Origin: Klebsiella pneumoniae
Lineage (GTDB): Bacteria; Myxococcota_A; UBA9042
DNA length: 64,000 nucleotides
Assembly: GCA_945889325.1 (NCBI GenBank)
Contig: CAMDBH010000003.1
Span: 27,702 to 91,701, forward strand
Direction of reading: 5' to 3'
The first letter of the stretch is position 1; every line of letters starts with the position of its first letter. A model generated the notes under the pieces. The model was not told the DNA's origin. It made no database searches and saw nothing but the letters and a program-made list of their open reading frames with translations. The translations under genes were made by a program, and so were the position numbers. Shown one piece after another: positions 11,933-41,914 of this stretch.

Positions 11933-14900
11933 TCACAGAGAGACCCAAACCGCCCCAGCCACGCCCGTCGTATTCTTACTGGCCGCAGGATTGGCAAACC
12001 CAGGAATAACAAGGCCTCCCGCACCACCGCCACCGCCACCACAACCGCCAACCGTCACACCATTGCCGCCATTGGCGCCGCCGGTACCGCCGCAATTGCT
12101 GTCATAACCAGAAGTTCCCCAATGCCCAGCCCCACCGGCGCCAAAACCACCGCCGGTGCCCGCAGGCTGATTGGAACCGGGCGAAGGTGTGCCCGCTACG
12201 CCAGCGTTGGCGCCCATCGGCACGGCCGAACCCACACCGCCGCCATCGGGCGAATTGGTGTAACCCGCGCCGCCGCCAGAGCCGCCGTTGCCGCCTTTGG
12301 CGCTCGGCTGGCCGCTGCCGGCCGTATGCGGCTGTCCCGGCAGACCGCCGTTGACCACCGTAGTGCCGAATTTGCTCGCGCCGCCGCCGGTCGAAATCAA
12401 GCCACCCGCACCGACTTCAATCGTCAACTGCGCACCTGCCTGCACGGCAATGGCTTTTTGCAAAATGTAGTAACCCGAGCCGCCGCCGCCGCCCGGATAA
12501 TAAAATCCAGTGCCGCCTCCCGCGCCACCGCCTATCATCGTGACAGTCAAGCTGTTTGTCGCGCCAGGGACCGTGAACGTGTCGGTGCCGGCAACGCTCC
12601 ACACGCAGCCGTTGCCCAACGGCGTGCCCTTGCCACAAGCCAGTGCAGTTAGTAAGCAATCCGCCGAACAGCCCGAAGCTGGCACGCCGTTTTTGTTGCC
12701 CAAATCGCATTGTTCCGGTGCCTCGACGCTGCCGTTGCCGCATACTTGCTTGACGATGCATTTGCCCGCCATGCACCAGTTCAAACCGCCGCAGTCGGTC
12801 TTATCGACTACATTATTGGGAACACAGCCTTTTATGCCATCGCAGGTGTCCAGCGTGCACGGGTTGCCATCGTCGCAAACGGTGACCTTCTTGACGCAAT
12901 TGAGGTTTTTGCACACCTCATTGCTGGTACAAGTGTCATTGTCGGGGCACAGCAGCACGTTGGGCGTCTGTACACAACCGGCTGATTTATCGCAGCTATC
13001 GTCGCTACAAATGTTGCCGTCGTCGCAGTTGACCGCTGGGCCGCCGCACACGCTGTTTTTGCAAGCGTCGTTTTGCGTGCACGCGTTGCTGTCGTCGCAT
13101 TTGCCCGCGTTGCCGGTGTTGATGCAGCCCTTCTTGGCATCGCAGGCGTCGTCGGTGCAAACATTGTTGTCATTGCAACTCACAGCGCTGCCTTCACAAT
13201 CGCCGAATTTGCAAATGTCGCTTTTGGTACACGCATTGCCGTCGTCGCAGCCTTTGCTGTTAAAAGTCGGATTGCAACCTTTGATTTTGTCGCATAAATC
13301 GTCAGTACACACGTTGTTGTCATTGCAATCTTTGGCCAAACCGCCGCTGCAAAAGCCGTTGGCGCAGGCGTCGCCCAACGTGCAGACATTGCCGTCGTCG
13401 CAAGGGGTGGCGTTCATGGCTGCGGCGTCAAAAAAGCAAGCGCCCGTGGTTTTGTTGCAGGTATCTGCCGTGCACAACACGTTGTCCGCGCACACTTTTG
13501 CCGCGCCCGAAACGCACAAGCTGTCCTTGCAATTGTCGCTTTGCGTACACGCGTCGCCGTCGCTGCACGGCACGGCATTGGCGAGGTGGGTGCAGCCGTT
13601 CTTGCCATCGCAGCTGTCATCGGTACACGGGTTGCTGTCGTCGCAGTTGACGGTTTTTCCTTGGCAGATTGCGTCGTTGCAGCCGTCGTTCTGCGTGCAC
13701 GCGTCGCCGTCGTTGCACGGAGCGCCCGCGGCTTTGTTCTTGTAGTCGCACTTGCCGTTGACCAAGCTGCAAGCGCCGACTACGCAAGTGACACCAGCGT
13801 CACAGGTTTTTGCCGCGCCTTTGGCGCATGCGCCGGCGTTGCACAAGTCTCCGATCGTACATGGGTTGTCGTCGTCGCAGGCAATGCCGTCCAAATTCGT
13901 GGTCTTGCAGCCCAATACCGCGTCGCAGGCATTGCCCGTACACGGATTGTTGTCGTCGCAACTGACAATTTTCCCAATACATTCGCCGCTTTTGCACACA
14001 TCCGTTTGCGTGCAGACCGTGCCGTCATCGCAAGGCACACCGTCCTGCGCCGATTTGCCGACGCATTTACCGCTGCTGTTGTCGCAACTGGCCTTGGCGC
14101 ATGGGTTTGTGTTGTCGCAGTCCACCATTTTGCCGGCCGTGCAAGTGCTGCCGACGCAATGGTCCGCAGAAGTACAAGCATTTCCGTCGGCGTCACAGGC
14201 TTTGCCGTCATCGGCGGTTTTGGTGCAGCCGCTCGCTGGGTCGCAGGCGTCGGTTGTACAAGGGTTGCCGTCGTCGCAGATCTTGCCTGCACCGGGCACG
14301 CAACTGCCCTGTTTACACTGATCATTTTCAGTACACGCGTTCTTGTCCGCGTCGCAAGGCACGTTGTTGAGCTTGTTGTACTGACAACCTTGCTGCGGAT
14401 CACAACTGCCGACGTTGCAGGTCCCGCCAGCATCGCAGGTGGATTCATCGGTTAAGCCGTCGCAATCGTTGTCCTTGCCGTCGCAAACTTCCACATCGAG
14501 CGCGGGCGCTGCGCACGTCGTCAGCCCGCTGCTGCCGCACGCGCGCACGCCAGCGCACTTGCCCACGAGTTCGCCCTTGTCATTCTTGTGCTCAATAAAA
14601 CAGTTGGTTTGCGCCTTTTGCGCCACCGCCAATTCGCTGCAAGTGCATTCACCGTATTTCAATTCGGGCGCGGTTGAGGTTTTCACGCACTGTTTGACCG
14701 GCGCCCCTTCCACTGAATTTACGCTTTGACATCCATAACCTGCCGCGCAATCGCCGTCGATCGCACACGCTGTCCCGCAAAAATTGCCCTGACCGGCTTC
14801 ATGGACGCAGGCCGCATCGCCGATGCCAAGCGATTGGCAATCCTTTGATTTCACGCAAGGATCGCACAAATGCATGTATTTGGGCACGCAAATCGTGACG

Positions 14901-31169: not shown

Positions 31170-32189
31170 CTATTTGACGTAACTGCTGCACTGGCCGCTG
31201 TCGCATTTGGCCGCCAGCGTGCCGCTGTCGATCGCCTTGCCGTCCTCGGCCGCGGTGGGCTGGGCCATGCAATCGCAGGCGGCGGGAATTTTACAAGCAA
31301 TTTCAGCGATATCGTAGTTGTCTTTGGCGGCTTTGTGGATGCCGTAGACGACTTCTGTGCCGCAACAATCCTTCTGATGCGTCACCGTGGCGCAATCGCT
31401 GTCGATTTGGCAATACTTGAACAGTTTGGGAAAGCCAGGCTCGCCGATTTTGCAGTCGATTTTTGCCGCTTTGACGTAACTTTGGCACAAGCCGGCCGTG
31501 CATTTGGCGCCGAAAATGTCGTCGGCGCCAAAGGCGCTAAAGCCGTCTTGGGCCAAGGTGGCAAACGAGGCACAGCCGCAGCCGGGATACTGGCCTTGGC
31601 AAGTGGCTTCGGCGGCTGCAAATTTGTCCTTGGCGCAGACGTTGATGCCCAGCGCCACGTTGGTGCCGCAGCAATTGATCTGGTGCTGGGCCACCGCGCA
31701 GTCGCTGTCGACTTTGCAAGTGTCTGACCATACAGGGAAACTGTTGGCACCGCCCATCGCGCAGTTGACACTGCCGCTGCCGCTGCAACTGCCGCTTGGC
31801 CCGCTGTCGTTGGCGGAATCGACTTTGGCCATATCGCTGCCGCCAGCGTCTTTGCTCACATCCGATCCACCAGAATCATTGGCAACGATGTCGCTTAGGC
31901 CGATGTCGTTGGCGGCGCTGTCGCTGGTTGCGCCGTCGTTGCCGACGTCCAACTTGGCCGCGTCCGCTTGGCCGCCGTCGTTCGGCAGGCTGTCCGTGGG
32001 GGGCGCGTCTGCAGGCCCTGCATCGTTGGCGGCCGCATCAGCCGCTGCGTCGGGTGCGTCAGCAGCAGCCGTTTCGACGGCGGCGTCTTTGGCCGCTGCG
32101 CTGTCACTGGCCGTGCCGCCACCGCCATTGGCCGTCGCACCGCAGGCCACCAGACCGAGAAACATCCATGCGATTGCGCAGCGAAACAT
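31170..32189 (-). CDS. Lipoprotein with D/A/S-rich tether and two tandem copies of a Cys-rich domain
   Basis: The internal ATG at 32189 (GGAGG RBS) gives MFRCAIAWMFLGLVACGAT. The duplicated module is C(K/Q)xDSDCAxxxHQxxCCGTxVxxGIxxxAKDx(F/Y)xxAExxC...C(G/D)CxxxxT.A(Q/E)DG...KC..G.C.SYVK. Confidence 0.7.
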   Translation of the reverse strand: MFRCAIAWMFLGLVACGATANGGGGTASDSAAAKDAAVETAAADAPDAAADAAANDAGPADAPPTDSLPNDGGQADAAKLDVGNDGATSDSAANDIGLSDIVANDSGGSDVSKDAGGSDMAKVDSANDSGPSGSCSGSGSVNCAMGGANSFPVWSDTCKVDSDCAVAQHQINCCGTNVALGINVCAKDKFAAAEATCQGQYPGCGCASFATLAQDGFSAFGADDIFGAKCTAGLCQSYVKAAKIDCKIGEPGFPKLFKYCQIDSDCATVTHQKDCCGTEVVYGIHKAAKDNYDIAEIACKIPAACDCMAQPTAAEDGKAIDSGTLAAKCDSGQCSSYVK

Positions 32190-32334
32190 GCCAAACCTCC
32201 AGCCACAGAATAGTCGTTTTGCATGGCCGCGCAACCAGCCGATAAATTGCACGGCAATCCTTGCGTTTCTCGGCGGCAATTGCAAGTATAGTTGCGGGGC
32301 TGCGGGTTTTTTCTGCGGCTGAAAACGCTGTACG

Positions 32335-33846
32335 ATGCAATGGCAGTTGGCAAAATGCGGGAAAGTTTTGCGCTTGGGCGCGGCGGCATTGCTTGCAGGG
32401 CTTTGCACCGCTGCGTGCGGCACAGGCAACCCTGCCACAGCGGACGCACAAGCCGCCGATCAGATCGCTGATATGGCAGATGTGTCTGACAATCTTGCAC
32501 AAGATGCTGTGACTGATGCGGCAGCGACTGAAATCGCCGATGCGATTTTGGAGGGCAGTGAAGCGGTGGTTGACGCCGCCGACTTCCAGGATACAATCGA
32601 AAAAGACGCGCCTGATTCCGTAGTTGTCGACATTTCGCTGCCGGCCGACGCCATCGACGCGGGGCTCGACAGTCTCGCGGATGTCGCCGCAGCGTTGGAT
32701 GCCAGCGCCACTGCCGATGTGCCTGATATCGCTAATTTTGCTGAAATTTCTGCCGATGCGGATGCTGTAGGTGCGCCCGATGTGGCCATTTGGCCCGATG
32801 TCGCAACCGACGTGAAATACGACAATGACGCTTATCCACTTGGATTTGTTTCACTTATCACGGGGAAAAATGCGGTGATTGAACTGGGCAAGATGAACGT
32901 CGCCGCGACCATTGGTGCTGGCGGAGAGCCCTTTCACGGCTGTGGCGTCCTGCCCGGACAGAAAACCGTTTACTTACCTGGCAATGCGGCGTTGGATCGC
33001 TACGATCAGGGCAGCAGCGCCAAGAATTGGCAGTTCATCAAAAGCATTAAATCCCCAGTCCATCCAGGCCAAGTGCGCGGGGCTCTGAACGGCAGCGTGA
33101 TCGGCATTGTCGATGGCTTTATGGTGCTGGATCAGAGCGGCATTGACTTCAAATCGGGCAATTTGCCGCCGGGATCAAAGAATTTGGCGATTTTTTATCC
33201 GCAAACGGAGACTTTTGCCAAAATTGTCGTGGTCACTTCGCCGTCGACGATTGCCGTGAGCGCAGACGGCGCGACAATTTACGCGGCCAACTGGATCGAA
33301 CACACCGTGTCGGTGGTCGAAACAAAAACCGCACAGGTGGTGGACACTTGGGAAATCCCTGCCAACCCCGCAGTGCCCAAATGGATCGGCCCTTCGGACG
33401 TCAAGGTGTCGCACAACGGCCTGTGGGTCGCAACGGCGAATTTGACCGGATCCAGCGTGACCATTTTCGACGTCAATGCCACGCTCGCCCCGCCACAAGT
33501 GGCTGTGTTTGAAAAGAAATTGGTGCACTGGGTCGATTTTTCGGCCGACGATTCGCGGGTCGTCGTGGTGCTGTGGCAAGACGTGCCCATGTTGGGCATG
33601 GAAATGAAGAACAAAGATATCGTCAATGAAATTCAAATTCTCGATCGACCGACCTTGCAAAAAATTGGCACGATCAAGCTGGCTGGCCAATTGATCGCCC
33701 ACGCCACCGTGCCGCCGGGATCAAAGTTTTTGTACGCCATGGGCTCAAACAGTCTGGTTTCGCAGTTTAATTTGGACACTTTGGCGCTGACTGGCCAGAC
33801 GCCCGGGCTGCTCGGGCCCGAGCCGGCGATGGTGATGCAATTTTGA
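32335..33846 (+). CDS. Lipoprotein with D/A-rich tether and YVTN/YncE-like beta-propeller region
   Basis: Signal peptide and lipobox LLAGLCTAACG. Long acidic spacer (ADVSDNLAQDAVTDAAATEIADA...). Repeats of the type ATIYAANWIEHTVSVVETKTAQVVDTWEIP. The start codon is not well supported by an RBS. Confidence 0.65.
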   Translation: MQWQLAKCGKVLRLGAAALLAGLCTAACGTGNPATADAQAADQIADMADVSDNLAQDAVTDAAATEIADAILEGSEAVVDAADFQDTIEKDAPDSVVVDISLPADAIDAGLDSLADVAAALDASATADVPDIANFAEISADADAVGAPDVAIWPDVATDVKYDNDAYPLGFVSLITGKNAVIELGKMNVAATIGAGGEPFHGCGVLPGQKTVYLPGNAALDRYDQGSSAKNWQFIKSIKSPVHPGQVRGALNGSVIGIVDGFMVLDQSGIDFKSGNLPPGSKNLAIFYPQTETFAKIVVVTSPSTIAVSADGATIYAANWIEHTVSVVETKTAQVVDTWEIPANPAVPKWIGPSDVKVSHNGLWVATANLTGSSVTIFDVNATLAPPQVAVFEKKLVHWVDFSADDSRVVVVLWQDVPMLGMEMKNKDIVNEIQILDRPTLQKIGTIKLAGQLIAHATVPPGSKFLYAMGSNSLVSQFNLDTLALTGQTPGLLGPEPAMVMQF

Positions 33847-34637
33847 TAAATCACCGATTTATAGCGGATTTTGCGCAGGTCACCTCCGCGACACTTGCGC
33901 TGGCTTGCATGCCCGCGTGCGGTGTGCCCGTTACCGCTGCGACCGACGCAGATGCGGCCGTGCAAAGCGACGCAATCGATGCAGGCATCGGAGATACAAC
34001 ACAACCGTTGGCCGATGTGCCCGCTGGCGACGGCCAAGTCGACTCCGCTGGTATAAAAGATGCTGCGGCCAATGCCGCTGATATTCCACCGGGTTCGTCG
34101 TCGCTTGCCTGCCCGGGTTATGCCGCCGTCAATGTCATCGGCGTGGGCAAGCCGTGTCAAACCAATGACGATTGCCAAGGGCAATTGGCGGTCACTTGTC
34201 CGCATTCCAACGACGCCAAAGCGTTCGACTTTTGCACGCGCTATTGCTTTGGACTGGACGCGCAGGAATGTGGGCCCAACGCGCGCTGCATCGCTCAAGG
34301 CGAAAAAACGTCCGTTTGCGCGCCCTTGCCTTGCGCCGACGCCCTTGAAATCAAGCCACCGCCCGACGTCAAAGCCAAGATCCCGTGCCCGGACGCCGTC
34401 GCCAACAGTTTTGGCGTCGGCAAACCCTGCAAAACAAAAGACGATTGCGCTGGCAACACGGTGGCCAAAGTGTGTCCGCTCGCGATCAAGCCGACCAACC
34501 CCGCCTGGTGTTCGCTTTTGTGCACCGACGATAGCGATTGCGGTCCGGACGCTTTTTGCTGGAAGCGCCACGCGGTGGAAGAAGGCGGATTGCTCATCGC
34601 CTCTTGCGCGCCAAAGATTTGCATTATCAAGGAGTAG
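33843..34637 (+). CDS. Cys-rich lipoprotein with two copies of a GVGKPC(Q/K)T(N/K)DDC module
   Basis: The TTG start overlaps the stop of the upstream gene. LALACMPACG is lipobox-like and a D/A-rich tether follows. The duplicated module is CPxxxAxNxxGVGKPCxTxDDCxGxxxxxCP...C...C..D.(E/D)CGP(N/D)A.C. Confidence 0.6.
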   Translation: MINHRFIADFAQVTSATLALACMPACGVPVTAATDADAAVQSDAIDAGIGDTTQPLADVPAGDGQVDSAGIKDAAANAADIPPGSSSLACPGYAAVNVIGVGKPCQTNDDCQGQLAVTCPHSNDAKAFDFCTRYCFGLDAQECGPNARCIAQGEKTSVCAPLPCADALEIKPPPDVKAKIPCPDAVANSFGVGKPCKTKDDCAGNTVAKVCPLAIKPTNPAWCSLLCTDDSDCGPDAFCWKRHAVEEGGLLIASCAPKICIIKE

Positions 34638-34653: not shown

Positions 34654-35451
34654 CTAGAAATGATAGCCCAAGCGCGCCATGCCGTAGCCGCCGACTTCCA
34701 GCGCTGATCCGTGCTGCAACTGAATGGCGCCCGCGCCCGCCAAGCCGCTCAAAAGAAATTTTCCCAAGCGGTATTGCACAGATGGACCGACAATGTGCTC
34801 TTGCACGCCCGTCTTCTCGATCCTGCTGCCCAAGGACGCCCTCGACTGATATTCGCCGCCGATTATGAAATCATTGCTAATATGGTACCCGCCGCCGAGG
34901 TGCGCTTCGACGTCCTGTTCGCGCCCATCTGCATCGCCTCCCGCAGTCAAATTGAGCAGAAGTTCGCTGCGGCCTCTGCGGAAGGCGCCCAAAAGGTGCA
35001 CTTCTACTTCACCTTCAGAGGTATTAAAACCTTCGGGTCGATACAAACCCATGATAGCACCGCTGAATTTGGACTTGGCGTCGCCGAGAAATTGCCACTT
35101 CAATCCCACCCCGGGGCGATAGCTGTCGGGGCGAATCGCAGAACCGAACGCGCTCAATTCTGCCGTTAAACCATAGCCCAAGCCCAACCGGCCAGTGACA
35201 CCCGGCGTCGCTGAAAAGCCGCCGGGCGCGCCAGAGCCCAAACTGGCCGTCGCGTCGCCTTCCCACTGATTCAAGCCGCTCGCTCTTCGAGTCAGATTCA
35301 TGTCAGATTGGCGAATCCAGTCTTCGTGCTTCTCGACAGGTTGTTCGGCGACAACACCCGGTGTTGGATCAAAACTGACGTCGGCGAACGAGTTCGCGGG
35401 ATATAGCAGCGAAATTACAAGAATCCATGGCCTGAAACTGCATCTACCCAT
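34654..35451 (-). CDS. Outer-membrane beta-barrel protein (hypothetical)
   Basis: Signal peptide MGRCSFRPWILVISLLYPANSFA. Alternating hydrophobic beta-strand pattern. The C-terminal ...GYGMARLGYHF ends in an aromatic residue, which is typical of OMPs. The start is taken at ATG 35451 rather than TTG 35469. Confidence 0.55.
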   Translation of the reverse strand: MGRCSFRPWILVISLLYPANSFADVSFDPTPGVVAEQPVEKHEDWIRQSDMNLTRRASGLNQWEGDATASLGSGAPGGFSATPGVTGRLGLGYGLTAELSAFGSAIRPDSYRPGVGLKWQFLGDAKSKFSGAIMGLYRPEGFNTSEGEVEVHLLGAFRRGRSELLLNLTAGGDADGREQDVEAHLGGGYHISNDFIIGGEYQSRASLGSRIEKTGVQEHIVGPSVQYRLGKFLLSGLAGAGAIQLQHGSALEVGGYGMARLGYHF

Positions 35452-35646
35452 CGCCGACCCCACTGACAACGGACACCGCTGTCGTCAGAAGTTTGTCATA
35501 ATCTCCGCCGGCGATCAAGCAAAAAGTTGCGGTCAAATGCCGTTGCGGTTTTTTTGTTGCAAGCCGTCGCGGAGATCGGGTCGACTTCAGCGGGCATTTC
35601 GCGCCACAATGCTGCGCGCCCGCGACCGGGCGAAGTTGGAGCGCGG

Positions 35647-36180
35647 GTGGAAAACGTCAGTTCAAAGCGTACGGCATGCGTATTTGTGGAAAACGATTAC
35701 CAAGAACTCGAAGCATGGTATCCGATTCTGCGCTTGCAAGAAGCGGGTTATGCTGTTGATGTCGTTGGGCGTTCTGCGACTGCACCGCATTACCGCGGCC
35801 GCAACGGCTATCCGTGCTCGGCCACCCATACCGCCGATCAGGTGCTGGCAACAGATTACGACATTGTCGTCATTCCAGGCGGTTGGGCGCCCGACAAACT
35901 GCGCATGGATGCCGATGTGTTGCAAATTGTCCAAAAAGCCATGGCGGCACGGCGCATCGTCGGCGCCATTTGCCATGCAGGTTCAGTGCTTATCAGCGCG
36001 GATGTAGTACAGGGACGGCAGGTGACCAGTTGGCCGTCGATTCGCCGCGATCTGGAGTACGCGGGCGCCCTTTGGTCCGACGCTGAAGTCGTGGTCGACG
36101 GTCATCTGGTCACGTCGCGCAAGCCCGAAGATTTGCCGATGTTCATGAAAGAAATTCTGCGTTTGGCGGAGGCACTGTGA
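35647..36180 (+). CDS. DJ-1/PfpI family protein (class I glutamine amidotransferase-like)
   Basis: In-frame GTG at 35647 with GGAG 6 nt upstream gives a family-typical length of about 177 aa. The nucleophile elbow AICHAGSVL and the blocks VIPGGWAPD and VVVDGHLVTSRKPEDLPMF are present. Confidence 0.8.
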   Translation: MENVSSKRTACVFVENDYQELEAWYPILRLQEAGYAVDVVGRSATAPHYRGRNGYPCSATHTADQVLATDYDIVVIPGGWAPDKLRMDADVLQIVQKAMAARRIVGAICHAGSVLISADVVQGRQVTSWPSIRRDLEYAGALWSDAEVVVDGHLVTSRKPEDLPMFMKEILRLAEAL

Positions 36181-37523
36181 CCGTTGCCCAGCATGTTTCG
36201 CTGCCCCTTGTGCGCGAAGAATCTTGCGATGTGCTGGTCATCGGTGCCGGTCCTGCGGGCTTTTCGGCTGCAATTTCAGCGGCCCGTCGCGGTTGCAAAA
36301 CCATGCTGATCGAACGACAGGCAAGCGCCGGCGGTGCCATGGTCTTGGGGATGAATCTGACCCCTGTGGGCTATGAACCCTTTAAATATTGGAGTAAAAA
36401 TACCGATCCAGCCTCTTTTGCCGTCCAAGGCATCGCCCGTGAATTGTACGATGCCATGGTGGCCGAACGCGCCGTGATCAAGCCGGTATGGGATGGCGAA
36501 ACCGCCAAATGGCTGATCGACAAGCTGCTGCAACAGGCTGGTGTTACAACGCTTTTTCACACCAATCTGGTCGATGCTTGGCTGGAGAACGACGCGGTCG
36601 TGGGCGCAATCGTCTTGGCGCGCGATGGCCTGTGGCGCATTCGCGCTGGCGTCAGCGTGGATTGCAGTGGCGACGGCGACCTTTTTGCCAAGGCCGGTGC
36701 GGACTTCCACATCGGGCGCGAAAGCGACGGCCGCACGCAGCCCATGGCGTTGGTCGCCATGCTCGGCGGGTTGCAACTGAATTTGCCCGACGACGTCGAT
36801 TTTGCCGGCTGGATGCAATTGACCAAGCAGCAGGTGGGACCGCAGTTGGATGCAGCGTGGCAAAGTGGTTTGATTCCACCGACTTTTGCCGGCATTCTGT
36901 TTCCGCGGGTCGTGCGCGGCGGCGTGCTCAAAGATCAGGCATGGGCGCGCTTGGTGCCGCAATGGATCGATCCCTTGGATCCACGCGCACTTGCAATGGC
37001 GGAGATGACCGCCCGCGACAATTTGCAGCGCATCGTCGATTTCTTGCGCAAGGAAGTCGCGGGCTGCGAAAATGCGGTCGTATTACATACTTCCAGTTCG
37101 CTTTGGGCGCGCAGTTCGCGGCGTTTGGTCGGCCTTGTTGAAATGCATGAAGACGACATCAGCACCAACCGCAAACGCGACGACGCGATCGCCCGCGGCA
37201 CCGGCTTTTTGGAAGTCCATTCAGCCACGCCGGGCAATCCGCGCCCAGAAGCGGGCTATGAATGGGCGCGCAAAGCGTCGCTCATCGACGCCGACGTGGA
37301 TTATGACATCGCGTATGGCTGCCTGATTCCGCAAAAGATCGATGGCCTTTTGGTCGCCGGTCGCTGCGTGTCGGCGACCCATTTGGCCCAGAGTTCGCTG
37401 CGCATGCAGATCACGTGCATGGCCATGGGCCAAGCGGCCGGGATTGCGGCGGCATTGTCGATTTTGATGGATATTTCACCGCGCGAGCTGCCGATCGGCG
37501 CGCTGCAGGCCGCGTTGCCTTGA
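36177..37523 (+). CDS. FAD-dependent oxidoreductase (FAD_oxidored/PF12831-like)
   Basis: The GTG start overlaps the upstream TGA (GTGA), with GGAGG 4 nt upstream. CDVLVIGAGPAGFSAAISAARRGCKTMLIERQASAGG is a dinucleotide-binding motif. Confidence 0.75.
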   Translation: MTVAQHVSLPLVREESCDVLVIGAGPAGFSAAISAARRGCKTMLIERQASAGGAMVLGMNLTPVGYEPFKYWSKNTDPASFAVQGIARELYDAMVAERAVIKPVWDGETAKWLIDKLLQQAGVTTLFHTNLVDAWLENDAVVGAIVLARDGLWRIRAGVSVDCSGDGDLFAKAGADFHIGRESDGRTQPMALVAMLGGLQLNLPDDVDFAGWMQLTKQQVGPQLDAAWQSGLIPPTFAGILFPRVVRGGVLKDQAWARLVPQWIDPLDPRALAMAEMTARDNLQRIVDFLRKEVAGCENAVVLHTSSSLWARSSRRLVGLVEMHEDDISTNRKRDDAIARGTGFLEVHSATPGNPRPEAGYEWARKASLIDADVDYDIAYGCLIPQKIDGLLVAGRCVSATHLAQSSLRMQITCMAMGQAAGIAAALSILMDISPRELPIGALQAALP

Positions 37524-37618
37524 CCGTTTTGGCCTGCGCAAAGCAAACTTGCGCCGACGCCGCTTATCGCTGCGCCAATAACGACGCCCAATAACCAGTA
37601 ACCACACAGGGAAATCGC

Positions 37619-38515
37619 ATGCAACAACAAATTCCGGTTTTGGTTTATGGCAGTTTCGCCCACGGTGGCGGCGCGCATGACGTCGTAGGTGACGCCCTGT
37701 TTCTCGGCCGCGCATTGGTTAAAGGCGTCGGTTATCAGTTGGCTGGCCGCATGCAGCGCGTGGGTTTGCACATCCGCGGCGGCGGCGATGCTTGGTTAGG
37801 CGGTGAACTGTATCCCGGCAGTGCGGCACTGCTGGACGCGCTGGATGCTGCCCATGGTTCTGAATTTACGCGTAAAATTGTCCAAATCCGTGCGGGTTCT
37901 GAAGGCCCGCTGATTCACGCTTGGGTCCACGTCTTCACCGGCGTGTGGTCCGAATTGGCCCATTGGCCAGGCGGCATCTTGCCCGAAGCCGCGCCGTTCG
38001 CTGGGCCGACCGCTTGGTATTTTGGCTATGCTTCCAACATGTTCCATTTTGCGGAGCGGCGCAAACTGACGGTGTTTGGCGCCCACAAACTCGGCCGCGT
38101 CGATGACTGGCGCATCGCTTTTGCCAAAGACAGCGGCAACGGTGAACACAACTATGCAACACTGTTGCCAAAACGCGGCGGCGTGGTCAAGGGCGCTTTG
38201 TACCGCATGAAGCAAACGGAGCTGGAAGGCCAACTCGATCCGCAGGAAAAAGAAGGCTGGCACTTGGTCCGGCGGACCTTCCCCGTGGTGCTAGAAGGCG
38301 AAGATCACGGCGAAATTGTGTGGGCCGAAGCCTACGTCTGTCTGCCGCGCTGGTGGGTTTGGAACCGCATTTCGCATCCGGTCAACACGCTGAAAATTGT
38401 GCCGGGAGCGTCGCTGGTCGGCCTCGATGCCGAATATGTCGCTTGGCTGACAAAATTTGTCGATACACCGTGCAATCCGGAAGACTACGATCTCGATTTG
38501 GATACAAAGGTGTAG
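37619..38515 (+). CDS. Tandem gamma-glutamylcyclotransferase-like (GGCT/AIG2-like) two-domain protein
   Basis: Domain 1 reads IPVLVYGSFAHGG...GGELY. Domain 2 reads WYFGYASNMFHFAERRKL...RIAFAKDS...GALYRM...AEAYV. Both match the YGSL/YGSN plus E pattern of the GGCT fold. Confidence 0.65.
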   Translation: MQQQIPVLVYGSFAHGGGAHDVVGDALFLGRALVKGVGYQLAGRMQRVGLHIRGGGDAWLGGELYPGSAALLDALDAAHGSEFTRKIVQIRAGSEGPLIHAWVHVFTGVWSELAHWPGGILPEAAPFAGPTAWYFGYASNMFHFAERRKLTVFGAHKLGRVDDWRIAFAKDSGNGEHNYATLLPKRGGVVKGALYRMKQTELEGQLDPQEKEGWHLVRRTFPVVLEGEDHGEIVWAEAYVCLPRWWVWNRISHPVNTLKIVPGASLVGLDAEYVAWLTKFVDTPCNPEDYDLDLDTKV

Positions 38516-38518
38516 ACC

Positions 38519-41161
38519 GTGGGCAACGCCGAGGCATGGCTGTGGCACGGCACCGTCGATGGCGCGGCCGCCGCCGTTGCGGTGCCCCACACGGCGACAC
38601 TGGCCGAAACCCTGCGCGCACTGGCCCACGATCGCGCTGAAGTGCCGTCTGTAAAAATAGCTTGCGATGAAGGGACTTGTGGCGCCTGCAGCGTGCTGCT
38701 CGACGGTCAGCGCGTGTTGGCGTGCTTGGTCCCAGCCCAGCGCGCAAGCGGCCGAAAAATTCAGACTGTTGTCAGTTTTGCCGGTGGGCCGATTCCACAA
38801 GCGCTGGCCCAAAGCGGTGCGCTGCAGTGCGGATTTTGCACACCTGGCATGGTTGTGGCCTTGGCGGAACTGCAACAACAAGGTTTTGTTCCAAAAAATG
38901 AAGACGAACTGGCCGCCGAACTGGCCAGCAACCTGTGCCGATGCACTGGTTATCGCCAACTTTTGACTTGCGGCGTGCAGATCTTGCGCGGCGAAACATC
39001 GCCGTCACAGGGCACGCCGCAAAGCGACGCGTTGGAAAAAGCTTGTGGGCGCGTGGCTTTTGCCACCGATTTGCAGGTTGCCCACGCGCTTTTTGGCGTC
39101 GCTTTGCGCAGCCCGCACGGCCACGCGCGCCTGCTTGCGCTCGATCTCGCGCAAGCGCGGGCGATGCCCGGCGTGCATGCCGTGATTTCAGCACTGGAAT
39201 TTGACGCGCCGCCCGTACCGGGTGAAGTGTTTTACGATTCCCCCATTTCGTCGCGGCCATTGCTGGATGCCGAGGCCTGTCACGCCGGTGCCCCCGTGGC
39301 ATTGCTCGCTGCCGAGACCCGCGAACAGGCGTTTGCGGCGCTGGCGGTCCTGCAGCCGCAGTGGCAATTACTTGAAACAGTGATGGATTTGCCGTCATCC
39401 CGCGCGGAAAATGGCGCGTGTGTGCATACGGGCCAAGCCAACGCCGCACTGCCGTTTGGACCGATTCACTGGCAAACGGGCGATGTCGACGCGGCCTTTG
39501 TTCAAGCTGCAAGCGTACGCGAGGACTGGTTTTCCACCGCAACCGTGCAAGCCGGTGCTTTGGAACCGTATTTTTGTGTCGTGCAACCGCGATCGGGAGG
39601 CGGCCTGATCGTGCACAAAGGTGTACCAGCGCCCTTTGAATTGCGCCGCCAGTTGGCACAATGGCTCAAGGTTTCTGAAGATCAAGTGGAAATTCGCTGT
39701 CCACCGGTCGGCGGCGGCTTTGGCAGCCGCATGGACGATTTGGAATATCTGGCGGCCTTACTTGGGCAACAAACGCAAAAACCCGTGCAAATGCAGCTAG
39801 ATCGCGGCAGCGGCTGGCTCGCCGGCCGCGTGCGCCACGGTGCGCAGATGCGCGTCAAATCAGGGCTGGATGGCCAAGGCAAACTGCTCGTGCGCGAACT
39901 GGAAGTGTTTTACGACACCGGCGCCTACCTCGATCTGGGGCCTTTTGTCGTGCTGCGCGCCCTGCGGCCTCTGGCGCTGTATCCCGCGCCAAATCAGCGC
40001 TTTATCGGCCATGTCTGCCGCACCAACAAACCGATCGCCGGCGCGACGCGCGGTTTTGGCAATCCGCAGGCGACCTTTGCCATTGAAACGCATACGGATT
40101 TGCTGTGCCGCGACAAGCACCTGGATCCTATCCAATTTCGCCGCGATCACCTCACTACAACGGCCCAAGCCAACATTTCTGTCGGCGTGGTCAACACCGA
40201 AAATGGCCTATTTTCACCCAAAGGCGCCGTCATTTCCTCGTGCGAAATACGTCAATGCCTTGATCTAGTTGAAAAATCTTGCGCCACTGCCCTGACTGCG
40301 CTGCCGCCAACGCCAACGGGCTGCGTTCGCGGTGTGGGCTTGGCGTGCGCCATGCACACGTCGGGCAAAGGCCGCGCCGAAGTATCGATGGCGCAAGTGC
40401 TTTGGACACACGAGGGCCTTTTTGTCCGCAGCGGCGCGCCAGACCAAGGCGGCACGGGCGTGGCGACGACGCTGCAACTGGTCGCGGCCGAAGCGCTGAA
40501 TCTGCCGCTAGAGCAAGTCAAGGTCGTCCTTGAGCCAACGTCGGCGGAACTGGAGGACAGTGGAGCGCACGCCTCGGGACGGACGTATGTGGCTGGAACA
40601 GCTGTATTTTCCGCGTGCGCCGTCTTGCTCAAGCGCCGTGATGCGGGAGAAAGTCTGCCGCTTGAAACAACTTTTCGCCATGTCCCTGCGACCAATGCGC
40701 CGCCGTTTGCCGCGTGCCAAGCGATTGTCGATGTCGACCTAGCAACGGGTCAAATTCACCTGCGCTGGCTGGGTCTTGGCGTCGACGCCGGGCGGATCCT
40801 CAATCCGCTGCAGGCCCGCGGTCAGGTGTTGGGTGCCGCCGTGCAGGGCATAGGCTATGCGTTGACAGAACGCCTTGATTTTGATGCGCAAGGTCGCCTC
40901 GCGACCGGCAGTCTGGCCGACTACGGCACGCCGCGGGCGTTTGAAGTGCCGCCGATCGATGTGCTTTTTGCCCAAAGTCATGAACCGACCCATCCGCTGG
41001 GCTGCAAGGGCGTGGGCGAAATCGGCTTGATGGCGGTAGCGCCGGCCATCGCCAACGCGGTCGCGCGGGCCATTGGGGCGCCGCTTTTTAACTTGCCACT
41101 TACGGCTGAATCGGTTTGGCGGGCATTGCAGCAAAATTCGCACACCTTGCAGGATTTATAG
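38519..41161 (+). CDS. Xanthine dehydrogenase/aldehyde oxidase-family molybdoenzyme with 2x[2Fe-2S] small-subunit domains fused to the Moco-binding large subunit
   Basis: CDEGTCGACSV (plant-type cluster), QCGFCTPGM and CRCTGY (second cluster). These are followed by a/b-hammerhead and Moco domains (GGGFGSR, GFGNPQATFAIE, GCKGVGEIG). The start lies 4 nt after the previous stop. Confidence 0.85.
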   Translation: MGNAEAWLWHGTVDGAAAAVAVPHTATLAETLRALAHDRAEVPSVKIACDEGTCGACSVLLDGQRVLACLVPAQRASGRKIQTVVSFAGGPIPQALAQSGALQCGFCTPGMVVALAELQQQGFVPKNEDELAAELASNLCRCTGYRQLLTCGVQILRGETSPSQGTPQSDALEKACGRVAFATDLQVAHALFGVALRSPHGHARLLALDLAQARAMPGVHAVISALEFDAPPVPGEVFYDSPISSRPLLDAEACHAGAPVALLAAETREQAFAALAVLQPQWQLLETVMDLPSSRAENGACVHTGQANAALPFGPIHWQTGDVDAAFVQAASVREDWFSTATVQAGALEPYFCVVQPRSGGGLIVHKGVPAPFELRRQLAQWLKVSEDQVEIRCPPVGGGFGSRMDDLEYLAALLGQQTQKPVQMQLDRGSGWLAGRVRHGAQMRVKSGLDGQGKLLVRELEVFYDTGAYLDLGPFVVLRALRPLALYPAPNQRFIGHVCRTNKPIAGATRGFGNPQATFAIETHTDLLCRDKHLDPIQFRRDHLTTTAQANISVGVVNTENGLFSPKGAVISSCEIRQCLDLVEKSCATALTALPPTPTGCVRGVGLACAMHTSGKGRAEVSMAQVLWTHEGLFVRSGAPDQGGTGVATTLQLVAAEALNLPLEQVKVVLEPTSAELEDSGAHASGRTYVAGTAVFSACAVLLKRRDAGESLPLETTFRHVPATNAPPFAACQAIVDVDLATGQIHLRWLGLGVDAGRILNPLQARGQVLGAAVQGIGYALTERLDFDAQGRLATGSLADYGTPRAFEVPPIDVLFAQSHEPTHPLGCKGVGEIGLMAVAPAIANAVARAIGAPLFNLPLTAESVWRALQQNSHTLQDL

Positions 41162-41878
41162 ATGTATTTGACCCCGCAATCGCTGCCGGAGGCGTTGCAA
41201 CTGCGAGCGCAGCATCCGCAAGCGGTGGTGCTGGCCGGCGCGACGCGCGTGTACGCCTTGCCAGCGGCCCAAAGGCCCGCGGACTTGTTGGATTTGCAGC
41301 ACATGGGCTGCAATGGCTTGCAATGGTTGGGCGATGAATTGCACATCGGCGCCATGGTGCCTCTGCACATTTTGGCGGCATCGTTGACGGAACACCGCGG
41401 ATTTACTGCGCTGCGCCAGGGCGTTTTGGCGATTTCGCCGCGACAGATTCGGCAACAAGCGACGATCGGCGGCAATGTGGCGGGTTCTGGCTCACTGCTT
41501 GCGCCTCTGGCGCTGCTGGGTGCGCGGGTGCAAGTGGCATCGCTGCGCGGCGTGCGTGAAGTAGACGTGCTGCAATGTGACCTTGCCGCGGACGAACTGC
41601 TGACCGGCGTTGTGGTCAAAGGTGCCGCATTTCCGACAAGTTACCGACAGTTTCGCCGTACGCCGTTGGGGCCCGCGCTGGTCGCTGTGGCGGTGGGGCG
41701 GGATCAAGGCCAACTGCGCCTGGCCATTCAAGGCGTGCAAGCAAAGGTTGTGCTGCTGACCGTTGCAGGCAATGCCGATTTGGCGCAGGAACTTGCACAA
41801 CGGTCGTTGCCTATTGGTGATTCTCGGGCTTCTGCGGAATTTCGCTTGGCCGTTTTGCACGCACTGCTGCGGCGTTAA
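41162..41878 (+). CDS. FAD-binding subunit of the molybdenum hydroxylase (CoxM/XdhB-like, short)
   Basis: The ATG directly abuts the upstream TAG. The MYLTPQSLPEALQLRAQHPQAVVLAGATRV, ATIGGNV and FRRTPLGPALVAVAV blocks are typical of the FAD_binding_5 family. Confidence 0.75.
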   Translation: MYLTPQSLPEALQLRAQHPQAVVLAGATRVYALPAAQRPADLLDLQHMGCNGLQWLGDELHIGAMVPLHILAASLTEHRGFTALRQGVLAISPRQIRQQATIGGNVAGSGSLLAPLALLGARVQVASLRGVREVDVLQCDLAADELLTGVVVKGAAFPTSYRQFRRTPLGPALVAVAVGRDQGQLRLAIQGVQAKVVLLTVAGNADLAQELAQRSLPIGDSRASAEFRLAVLHALLRR

Positions 41879-41883
41879 CACCA

Positions 41884-41914
41884 GGCCTTTTGCCTCGCAG
41901 GCAAGTGGCTTTTG
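41884..41914 (+). terminator. Candidate intrinsic terminator after the Mo-hydroxylase cluster
   Basis: GGCCTTTTGCC-tcgca-GGCAAGTGGC forms an imperfect 10-bp stem followed by TTTT, 6 nt after the TAA at 41876-41878. Confidence 0.5.

Follow-up and report, generated by a model that had tools for sequence, protein, structure and literature searches.

A probable co-functional module of a molybdenum hydroxylase, a PF12831 flavoprotein and a tandem GGCT-fold protein within a rare accessory gene set of uncultured Myxococcota

Introduction

Molybdenum hydroxylases of the xanthine dehydrogenase (XDH) family are overwhelmingly catabolic enzymes. Among the described systems, the E. coli XdhD/YgfM type (TIGR03313 with TIGR03312) and the selenium-dependent XDH (TIGR03311) combine a single chain carrying two [2Fe-2S] clusters and the molybdenum cofactor (Moco) with a separate flavin adenine dinucleotide (FAD) subunit of about 240-260 amino acids (aa), while the Desulfovibrio gigas aldehyde oxidoreductase (MOP; 1sij/1vlb) has a fused FeS-Moco chain and no FAD subunit. 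Here we analyze a five-gene cluster that encodes a member of this family together with a DJ-1/PfpI protein, an FAD-dependent oxidoreductase of family PF12831 (FADox) and a protein with a tandem gamma-glutamylcyclotransferase (GGCT) fold (GGCT2). It lies at positions 35647-41878 of a 64,000-nucleotide stretch of DNA (the window; GenBank assembly GCA_945889325.1, contig CAMDBH010000003.1, positions 27,702 to 91,701 of the forward strand). The assembly is a metagenome-assembled genome (MAG) of 3.47 Mb in 128 contigs, 84% complete and labeled G000 below, and its family comprises uncultured Myxococcota sampled in boreal lakes, in groundwater and deep in Lake Baikal.

The molybdenum enzyme of the window shares the architecture of the XdhD/YgfM-type and selenium-dependent enzymes, which are among its best matches, but it scores 248.5 against a cutoff of 1101.9 for TIGR03313 and 75.7 against 241.5 for TIGR03312. 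Its orthologues are normally encoded by three genes, and its partners (GGCT2, PF12831 and radical S-adenosylmethionine (radical-SAM) proteins) differ. MOP is the best match among solved structures (218 bits), and its Glu869 aligns with the catalytic Glu834 (in KGVGE) of the window's chain. Unlike MOP, however, the window's chain has an abutting FAD subunit; its identity to MOP is low, its orthologues are unfused, and it reaches 297 bits where the MOP-type model NF045668 requires 1100.

The two-domain fold of GGCT2 is shared with Bacillus subtilis YkqA (2qik; E 2e-11 over 293 columns) and with human GGCT and GGACT, including YxSN and LDxQE motifs in the second domain, yet sequence identity to YkqA is 16%, a C-terminal extension of about 60 aa is found only in the GGCT2 family, and YkqA is itself uncharacterized. 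Two further systems offer analogies. In the Puu pathway (PuuA-D), gamma-glutamyl-putrescine is catabolized by a flavin oxidase, aldehyde oxidation and removal of the gamma-glutamyl group by a hydrolase of the class-I amidotransferase fold. A similar logic could operate here, with the DJ-1/PfpI protein and/or the GGCT taking off the gamma-glutamyl group, but there is no protein homologous to PuuB, PuuC or PuuD and no PuuA-like ligase in the cluster; the likeness is one of analogy and not of membership. The maturation of qhp/mau quinoprotein amine dehydrogenases brings an exported beta-propeller and a Cys-rich protein together with radical-SAM and flavin enzymes. The gene set described below shows the same kind of co-occurrence, which may serve as a lead; however, the proteins do not resemble QhpB, QhpC or MauA/B in sequence as far as searches could tell, and the radical-SAM enzymes concerned are B12-binding and HemN-like rather than SPASM proteins.

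Results

Layout of the cluster

The cluster consists of five genes followed by a hairpin:

35647-36180, + strand: DJ-1/PfpI/YhbO-family protein (PF01965, E 2e-47; AICH nucleophile elbow)
36177-37523, + strand: FADox, PF12831 FAD-dependent oxidoreductase (E 3.5e-94); core member
37619-38515, + strand: GGCT2, tandem GGCT-fold protein of 298 aa (PF06094, two stretches); core member
38519-41161, + strand: fused 2x[2Fe-2S]-Moco chain of 880 aa (Pfam and NCBIfam); core member
41162-41878, + strand: short FAD subunit of 238 aa (FAD_binding_5, PF00941, E 2e-20)
41883-41911, + strand: hairpin with a short U tract, possible terminator (-20.2 kcal/mol; z = -1.2, not significant)

The five same-strand genes stand as the initial annotation had called them, with domains upheld by both Pfam and NCBIfam, and the three tight junctions that it reported can be read directly from the sequence. 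The DJ-1/PfpI and FADox genes overlap by 4 nt at a GTGA (36177-36180), the stop codon of GGCT2 (TAG) is separated from the GTG start of the FeS-Moco gene by three nucleotides ('acc', 38516-38518), and the TAG of the latter directly abuts the ATG of the FAD-subunit gene at 41162 (0-nt gap). The FADox-GGCT2 junction is looser, with a gap of 95 nt. The longest open reading frame of the DJ-1/PfpI gene starts from a TTG at 35527; the GTG at 35647 has a GGAG a few nucleotides upstream. The terminator proposed after the last gene keeps candidate status only: a hairpin with a four-U tail does exist, but it is weak when compared with shuffled sequences, and the region holds 20 terminator-like structures against 13.6 +/- 4.2 in shuffles, an excess that is not clear. 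As had also been stated, no regulator, transporter or XdhC gene adjoins the five genes; an XdhC gene is found elsewhere, on contig C44. A single operon is the best explanation of this arrangement.

Conservation and co-inheritance of the module

We surveyed the neighborhood across 37 genomes of the uncultured Myxococcota family (G labels) and compared further contigs or loci (L labels). GGCT2 is present in 8 of the 37. FADox orthologues (at least 49% identity) occur in 7/37, and the same seven genomes have Moco orthologues (at least 52% identity), with FeS and Moco unfused in those of the seven other than G000. The remaining GGCT2 carrier is G046, a fragmentary genome in which the gene begins at a contig end. 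Non-carrier genomes of the family have Moco paralogues at 30-34% identity only. The same pattern holds within genus g10, where 3-4 of 11 species are carriers, each with all members.

Adjacency recurs in different arrangements. FADox and GGCT2 are neighbors in G000, G002, G008, G009, G022, L014 and L056. The order is FADox-GGCT2-FADsub-FeS-Moco in a contiguous block in G008 and FADox-FADsub-FeS-Moco, likewise contiguous, in G012 and L058; G009 and G022 have propeller-FADox-GGCT2-propeller; and in G002 a DJ-1-FADox-GGCT2 block lies about 9 kb away from FeS-Moco-FADsub. In L056, FADox is followed by a GGACT gene, an amidohydrolase (Amidohydro_3) and a major facilitator superfamily (MFS) transporter. 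In addition, contig L057 (ERZ24794640 NODE_2960, 12340-14172) encodes a 610-aa fusion of a single GGACT/AIG2 domain to PF12831. Recurrent adjacency and shared distribution thus do not uphold the fortuitous adjacency that the initial annotation had named as its own refutation. We put at roughly 0.85 the probability that the five genes are a genuine co-functional module and belong to a larger, patchily distributed accessory set.

The wider set: radical-SAM partners

The five genes had been presented as a unit, and the link between them is real, but the set also takes in two upstream lipoproteins and, in other carriers, three radical-SAM enzymes. Interspersed with the module in G002, G006, G008 and G012 are genes for a B12-binding radical-SAM enzyme of 456 aa, a HemN-like (STM4012-type) radical-SAM protein of about 850 aa fused to a ThiO-like DAO domain, and a second B12-binding radical-SAM enzyme of 550 aa. 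A HisC/CobD-like aminotransferase and a HAD hydrolase are encoded beside the module in no fewer than three carriers (G002, G008 and G012) and in L058; the same three carriers also have there an LdpA-like Fe-S protein and a 281-aa protein without a family assignment. Orthologues of the radical-SAM-DAO protein and of the B12-binding radical-SAM enzyme occur in exactly the seven carriers other than G000; the second B12-binding enzyme, LdpA and the 281-aa protein are also present in G006, G009, G022 and G046. Contig L057 has its own version of this neighborhood: its fusion gene adjoins a FADox orthologue, a Cys-rich protein, two B12-binding radical-SAM enzymes and a stand-alone HemN-like radical-SAM protein, with DAO encoded by a separate gene. 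In-frame TGA codons flagged in the radical-SAM genes of the relatives as possible selenocysteine are ordinary stops at gene ends.

In G000, with its 84% completeness, we found no orthologues of the B12-binding radical-SAM enzymes, the radical-SAM-DAO fusion, LdpA or the 281-aa protein, and a search of its contig ends at relaxed thresholds recovered no pieces of radical-SAM, LdpA, aminotransferase or HAD genes. A HisC-like aminotransferase directly followed by a HAD-like open reading frame is present at C86:1223-2428, but with just 26-35% identity to the cluster pair these are probably distant paralogues. Elsewhere in the same MAG, C33:16930-23042 has four radical-SAM domain matches in about 6 kb, a separate cluster that is not orthologous to the module partners. 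The five genes are only a portion of the larger set, and its radical-SAM half may be truly absent from G000 or may have been missed at 84% completeness.

GGCT2, FADox and the DJ-1/PfpI protein

GGCT2 matches PF06094 (GGACT) at E 1.9e-14 (54.7 bits against a gathering cutoff of 22.8), and structure prediction confirms its tandem GGCT fold: the AlphaFold 2 (AF2) model has a predicted TM-score (pTM) of 0.80, YkqA is its best Foldseek match in the PDB, and human GGCT (3cry) and human GGACT (3jub) follow with probability 1.00. A phmmer search against the PDB gave no match at E <= 1, so that the fold assignment draws on AF2 and Foldseek. In an alignment of ten orthologues the second domain (residues 130-298) is far better conserved than the first and has invariant YxGYASNM and LDPQEKEG stretches, which would correspond to the substrate-anchoring and catalytic-Glu motifs of GGCT/ChaC-type enzymes. 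The first domain is GGACT-like, with an invariant G-E63-L and a YGS motif that is degenerate and unconserved among orthologues. The family-specific C-terminal extension reads PRWWxW...ISHPxNTxKI...YDLDL. The protein is rare: 5.8 billion proteins contain just 12 clusters of it, and among 185,579 species genomes it occurs at 7 loci, every one of them in this single family.

FADox matches PF12831 over its full length (positions 1-416 of 416; 316.9 bits), has a GxGxxG dinucleotide-binding motif (VIGAGPAG) and is a member of that family. About 25 orthologue clusters share at least 48% identity, after which identity drops to 36% or less. Two out-group PF12831 paralogues, at about 35% identity, lie in unrelated contexts, with a LacI regulator and a peptide-type ABC transporter in one and an AraC regulator in the other. 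The AF2 model has a confidence (pLDDT) of 95, and its best TM-score to any PDB entry by Foldseek is just 0.4-0.5, with no close solved relative.

The DJ-1/PfpI protein belongs to the TIGR01382 subfamily (148.8 bits against a cutoff of 139.05) and has an AICHAG motif (Cys-His elbow). Its orthologue occurs only in G000 and G002, that is in 2/8 carriers, and abuts FADox in both; it is a lineage-specific add-on and not a core member.

The molybdenum enzyme

At the superfamily level the molybdenum enzyme is an XDH/XO-family hydroxylase. Its 880-aa chain combines Fer2_2, Ald_Xan_dh_C (a/b hammerhead) and MoCoBD_1/2 domains, all above Pfam cutoffs, and both sets of [2Fe-2S] Cys motifs are intact (CDEGTCGAC at 49-57, CGFC at 104-107 and CRC at 140-142). 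Inspection of the active site, which the initial annotation had suggested, found Glu834, Arg480 and Arg511 kept, along with GGGFGSRM at 398. The Glu expected at the GGGFGGKE position of XDH proper is replaced by Met405, which aligns with MOP Phe425; we take this to be the position of Glu802 in bovine XDH. The equivalog cutoffs of the XDH models (XdhA, PucD, XdhB) are missed, with 337 against 780, 316 against 916, 310 against 784 and 183 against 850 bits. Since every NCBIfam equivalog (XDH, PucD, 4-HBCR, PaoC, carbon monoxide dehydrogenase and MOP-type) scores far under cutoff, we regard the enzyme as an XDH-family member that falls into none of these curated groups.

The initial annotation had remarked that the fused FeS-Moco chain keeps a short FAD subunit on a gene of its own. 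Both are present, but the pair is not a noteworthy hybrid: fused FeS-Moco homologues number in the thousands, and because NCBIfam already curates the pair TIGR03313/TIGR03312, with an FAD subunit of about 257 aa, the architecture is unsurprising. TIGR03312 is also the best NCBIfam match of the window's FAD subunit, whose orthologue adjoins the FeS and Moco genes in all relatives. Because FAD, FeS and Moco are three separate genes in all six relatives, the FeS-Moco fusion is locally derived and an exception in its orthologue group. In L047 the FeS gene ends in ...LLRGPT* and overlaps the Moco start; the G000 frame reads on, across a junction at about 38990, as ...ILRGETSPSQGTPQSDALEKACGRV. Support for the G000 fusion comes solely from two contigs on which the identical 880-aa protein is recorded. 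Other fusions occur among the compared contigs, namely an independent FeS::Moco fusion of 885 aa (L048:1912-4569) and a FADsub::FeS fusion of 434 aa (L058:9470-10774), so the pattern of subunit fusion is fluid among these orthologues.

G000 encodes just one further XDH-family large subunit, at C44:17961-21528, with an XdhC/CoxI maturation gene about 3 kb downstream. This XdhC could serve the window's molybdenum enzyme in trans.

As had been proposed, the cluster fits no characterized pathway. The molybdenum enzyme, FADox and GGCT2 all stay below every NCBIfam equivalog cutoff, and literature searches on PF12831, on STM4012 and on GGCT with radical SAM and xanthine dehydrogenase found nothing relevant.

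Exported lipoproteins and upstream genes

Upstream of the five genes the window encodes:

32335-33846, + strand: propeller A, a lipoprotein with a D/A-rich tether and a YVTN/lactonase-type beta-propeller (lipobox; Pfam Lactonase, E 2e-5)
33843-34637, + strand: Cys-rich lipoprotein with two modules of about 80 aa and 8 Cys each (GVGKPC...DC.G...CGP motif)
34654-35469, - strand: probable outer-membrane beta-barrel protein (signal peptide; C-terminal ...GYHF), divergent from the operon

The first two genes overlap by 4 nt, and each of the two families occurs in exactly the 8/37 genomes that carry the module. In G009 and G022 the propeller A orthologue immediately precedes FADox, homologues of the Cys-rich lipoprotein stand beside module parts in 8 sources, and both families adjoin module parts in most loci. 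Propeller A and the Cys-rich lipoprotein are thus co-inherited partners of the module and, judging from their sequences, extracytoplasmic ones. The best PDB match of propeller A by sequence is the YVTN propeller 1l0q; the Cys-rich lipoprotein has no Pfam, NCBIfam or PDB match. A link to quinoprotein amine dehydrogenases at the sequence level was considered and dropped, as the relatives found for the propeller are YVTN S-layer and hydrazine-synthase propellers, and none was found for the Cys-rich protein.

Only two loci in G000 encode members of the Cys-rich family. The second, at C78:8539-13956, encodes propeller B (467 aa), an AsnB-like asparagine synthase, and a three-module (386 aa) and a two-module (244 aa) Cys-rich protein. 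Contig C78 ends 276 bp past the last Cys-rich gene, whose homologue in G009 and G022 is followed by radical-SAM genes.

The beta-barrel protein at 34654-35469 has no Pfam or NCBIfam family match and no conserved homologue near the module in the relatives. Further upstream, at 31170-32438 on the minus strand, lies a third lipoprotein; it too has a D/A-rich tether, and its Cys modules are duplicated but of another type (CCGT motifs). The relatives have no homologue of it near the module, nor does G000 have a second copy.

Discussion

The best explanation of these data is that the five genes are the cytoplasmic part, combining redox and gamma-glutamyl chemistry, of a rare accessory set. The substrate would be a small nitrogen compound with a gamma-glutamyl (or glutamyl-like) amide. 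FADox would dehydrogenate it, and the C-terminal GGCT/ChaC-like domain of GGCT2 would cyclize the glutamyl group off, releasing 5-oxoproline and a free amine or heterocycle. The molybdenum enzyme would then oxidize an aldehyde or an N-adjacent C-H, with electrons passing from Moco through the two [2Fe-2S] clusters to the FAD subunit, and the DJ-1/PfpI protein, an addition of the G000/G002 lineage, would act as an accessory amidase. The initial annotation's idea of a gamma-glutamylated compound is a reasonable hypothesis, and the specific chemistry (dehydrogenation by FADox, glutamyl removal and molybdenum-dependent oxidation) is offered as a tentative scheme of low confidence. We lean slightly toward a module that breaks down or salvages the compound rather than building it. 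Hints of catabolism come from the MFS transporter and Amidohydro_3 protein of L056, the amidohydrolases and TetR regulator of L057, and an SSF transporter in G002.

Several observations weigh against this account. The gene tables of the surveyed loci contain no gamma-glutamyl ligase, whether glutamine synthetase-like or ATP-grasp, and no transpeptidase, a search that was not extended genome-wide; the scheme thus does not account for where a gamma-glutamyl substrate would come from. Foldseek matches of GGCT2 include the C-terminal domain of allophanate hydrolase, and GGCT folds can do other chemistry. For FADox, Foldseek returned only generic two-domain flavoproteins (geranylgeranyl reductase, halogenases, fumarate reductases), with no pointer to function. 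Partners such as radical-SAM enzymes, an aminotransferase and a HAD hydrolase fit biosynthesis more readily than catabolism. Finally, the carrier genomes are kin, so that counting each as a separate case of co-occurrence exaggerates how many independent events there were.

The nature of these partners leads to a different reading, in which the five genes carry out late tailoring or redox steps in the anaerobic biosynthesis of a small nitrogenous metabolite or cofactor, built by the radical-SAM, aminotransferase and HAD enzymes and perhaps used by the lipoproteins, with the radical-SAM half of G000 left unassembled. All 7 other carriers have the two B12-binding radical-SAM enzymes, the HemN-like radical-SAM-DAO protein, LdpA and the 281-aa protein, often interleaved with the module. 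An unassembled half is also in keeping with the completeness and fragmentation of the MAG and with contig C78, which stops just where radical-SAM genes come next in G009 and G022. The catabolic bent of XDH-family hydroxylases speaks against such a pathway, as does the lack in any locus of anything that would form a scaffold (a nonribosomal peptide synthetase, polyketide synthase, terpene synthase or evident precursor peptide). The 7 missing genes span 1-3 loci elsewhere, and to lose them all to assembly gaps without leaving a fragment at any G000 contig end needs some luck. Overall we rate this reading as a serious contender, somewhat short of even odds. We regard as a long shot the proposal, parallel in its logic to the quinoprotein amine dehydrogenases, that the whole set matures and turns over a new kind of extracytoplasmic redox machine. 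A protein-derived or small-molecule cofactor would here be installed by radical-SAM and flavin enzymes in the Cys-rich lipoproteins, which would act jointly with the propellers, and the FADox/GGCT2/molybdenum operon would process the product of the machine (an aldehyde or gamma-glutamyl amine) in the cytoplasm. G000 would then be a natural 'half system' that kept the lipoproteins and the cytoplasmic redox part and lost the radical-SAM half.

More conventional explanations fare less well. A carbonyl-stress or deglycation unit, pairing a DJ-1/PfpI deglycase or glyoxalase III with an aldehyde oxidoreductase, would account for the match to TIGR01382 (DJ-1/PfpI/YhbO deglycase/protease) and for MOP as the closest structure of the molybdenum chain; it is nonetheless improbable, given that the DJ-1/PfpI gene is found in just two carriers and that no role is left for GGCT2, FADox, the lipoproteins or the radical-SAM enzymes. 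It is more improbable still that the locus is a standard operon for a purine (xanthine/hypoxanthine) dehydrogenase, set among genes that have nothing to do with it. The top NCBIfam matches of the chain do include the XdhA, PucD and selenium-dependent XDH models at 310-337 bits, but these scores are far under cutoffs of 780-916 bits, Met405 occupies the position of bovine Glu802, and the Pfam and NCBIfam scan found no uricase, allantoinase or guanine deaminase nearby. The strict co-inheritance with GGCT2, FADox and the radical-SAM genes would also be left unexplained. As to a chance juxtaposition of unrelated genes, gene order does vary among the genomes and in three of them the parts lie on different contigs. 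The conservation data effectively refute it: at least 7 families have identical phyletic profiles over the 37 genomes, also inside one genus, the neighbors recur in different orders, and a GGACT domain is fused to PF12831.

All the catalytic proteins of the set come from known superfamilies, yet the combination of an XDH-family molybdenum enzyme, PF12831, a tandem GGCT, three radical-SAM enzymes and two exported lipoprotein families fits no described pathway. PF12831 proteins and YkqA-type tandem GGCT proteins are without an assigned reaction, and their obligate pairing and natural fusion provide a handle on their substrates. The window presents a version of the set that has the redox genes and the lipoproteins without the radical-SAM genes; if this absence is true, the set splits into two separable halves. 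As the set is limited to uncultured Myxococcota of lakes and groundwater, it could mark a lineage-specific metabolism, perhaps the anaerobic processing of nitrogen compounds.

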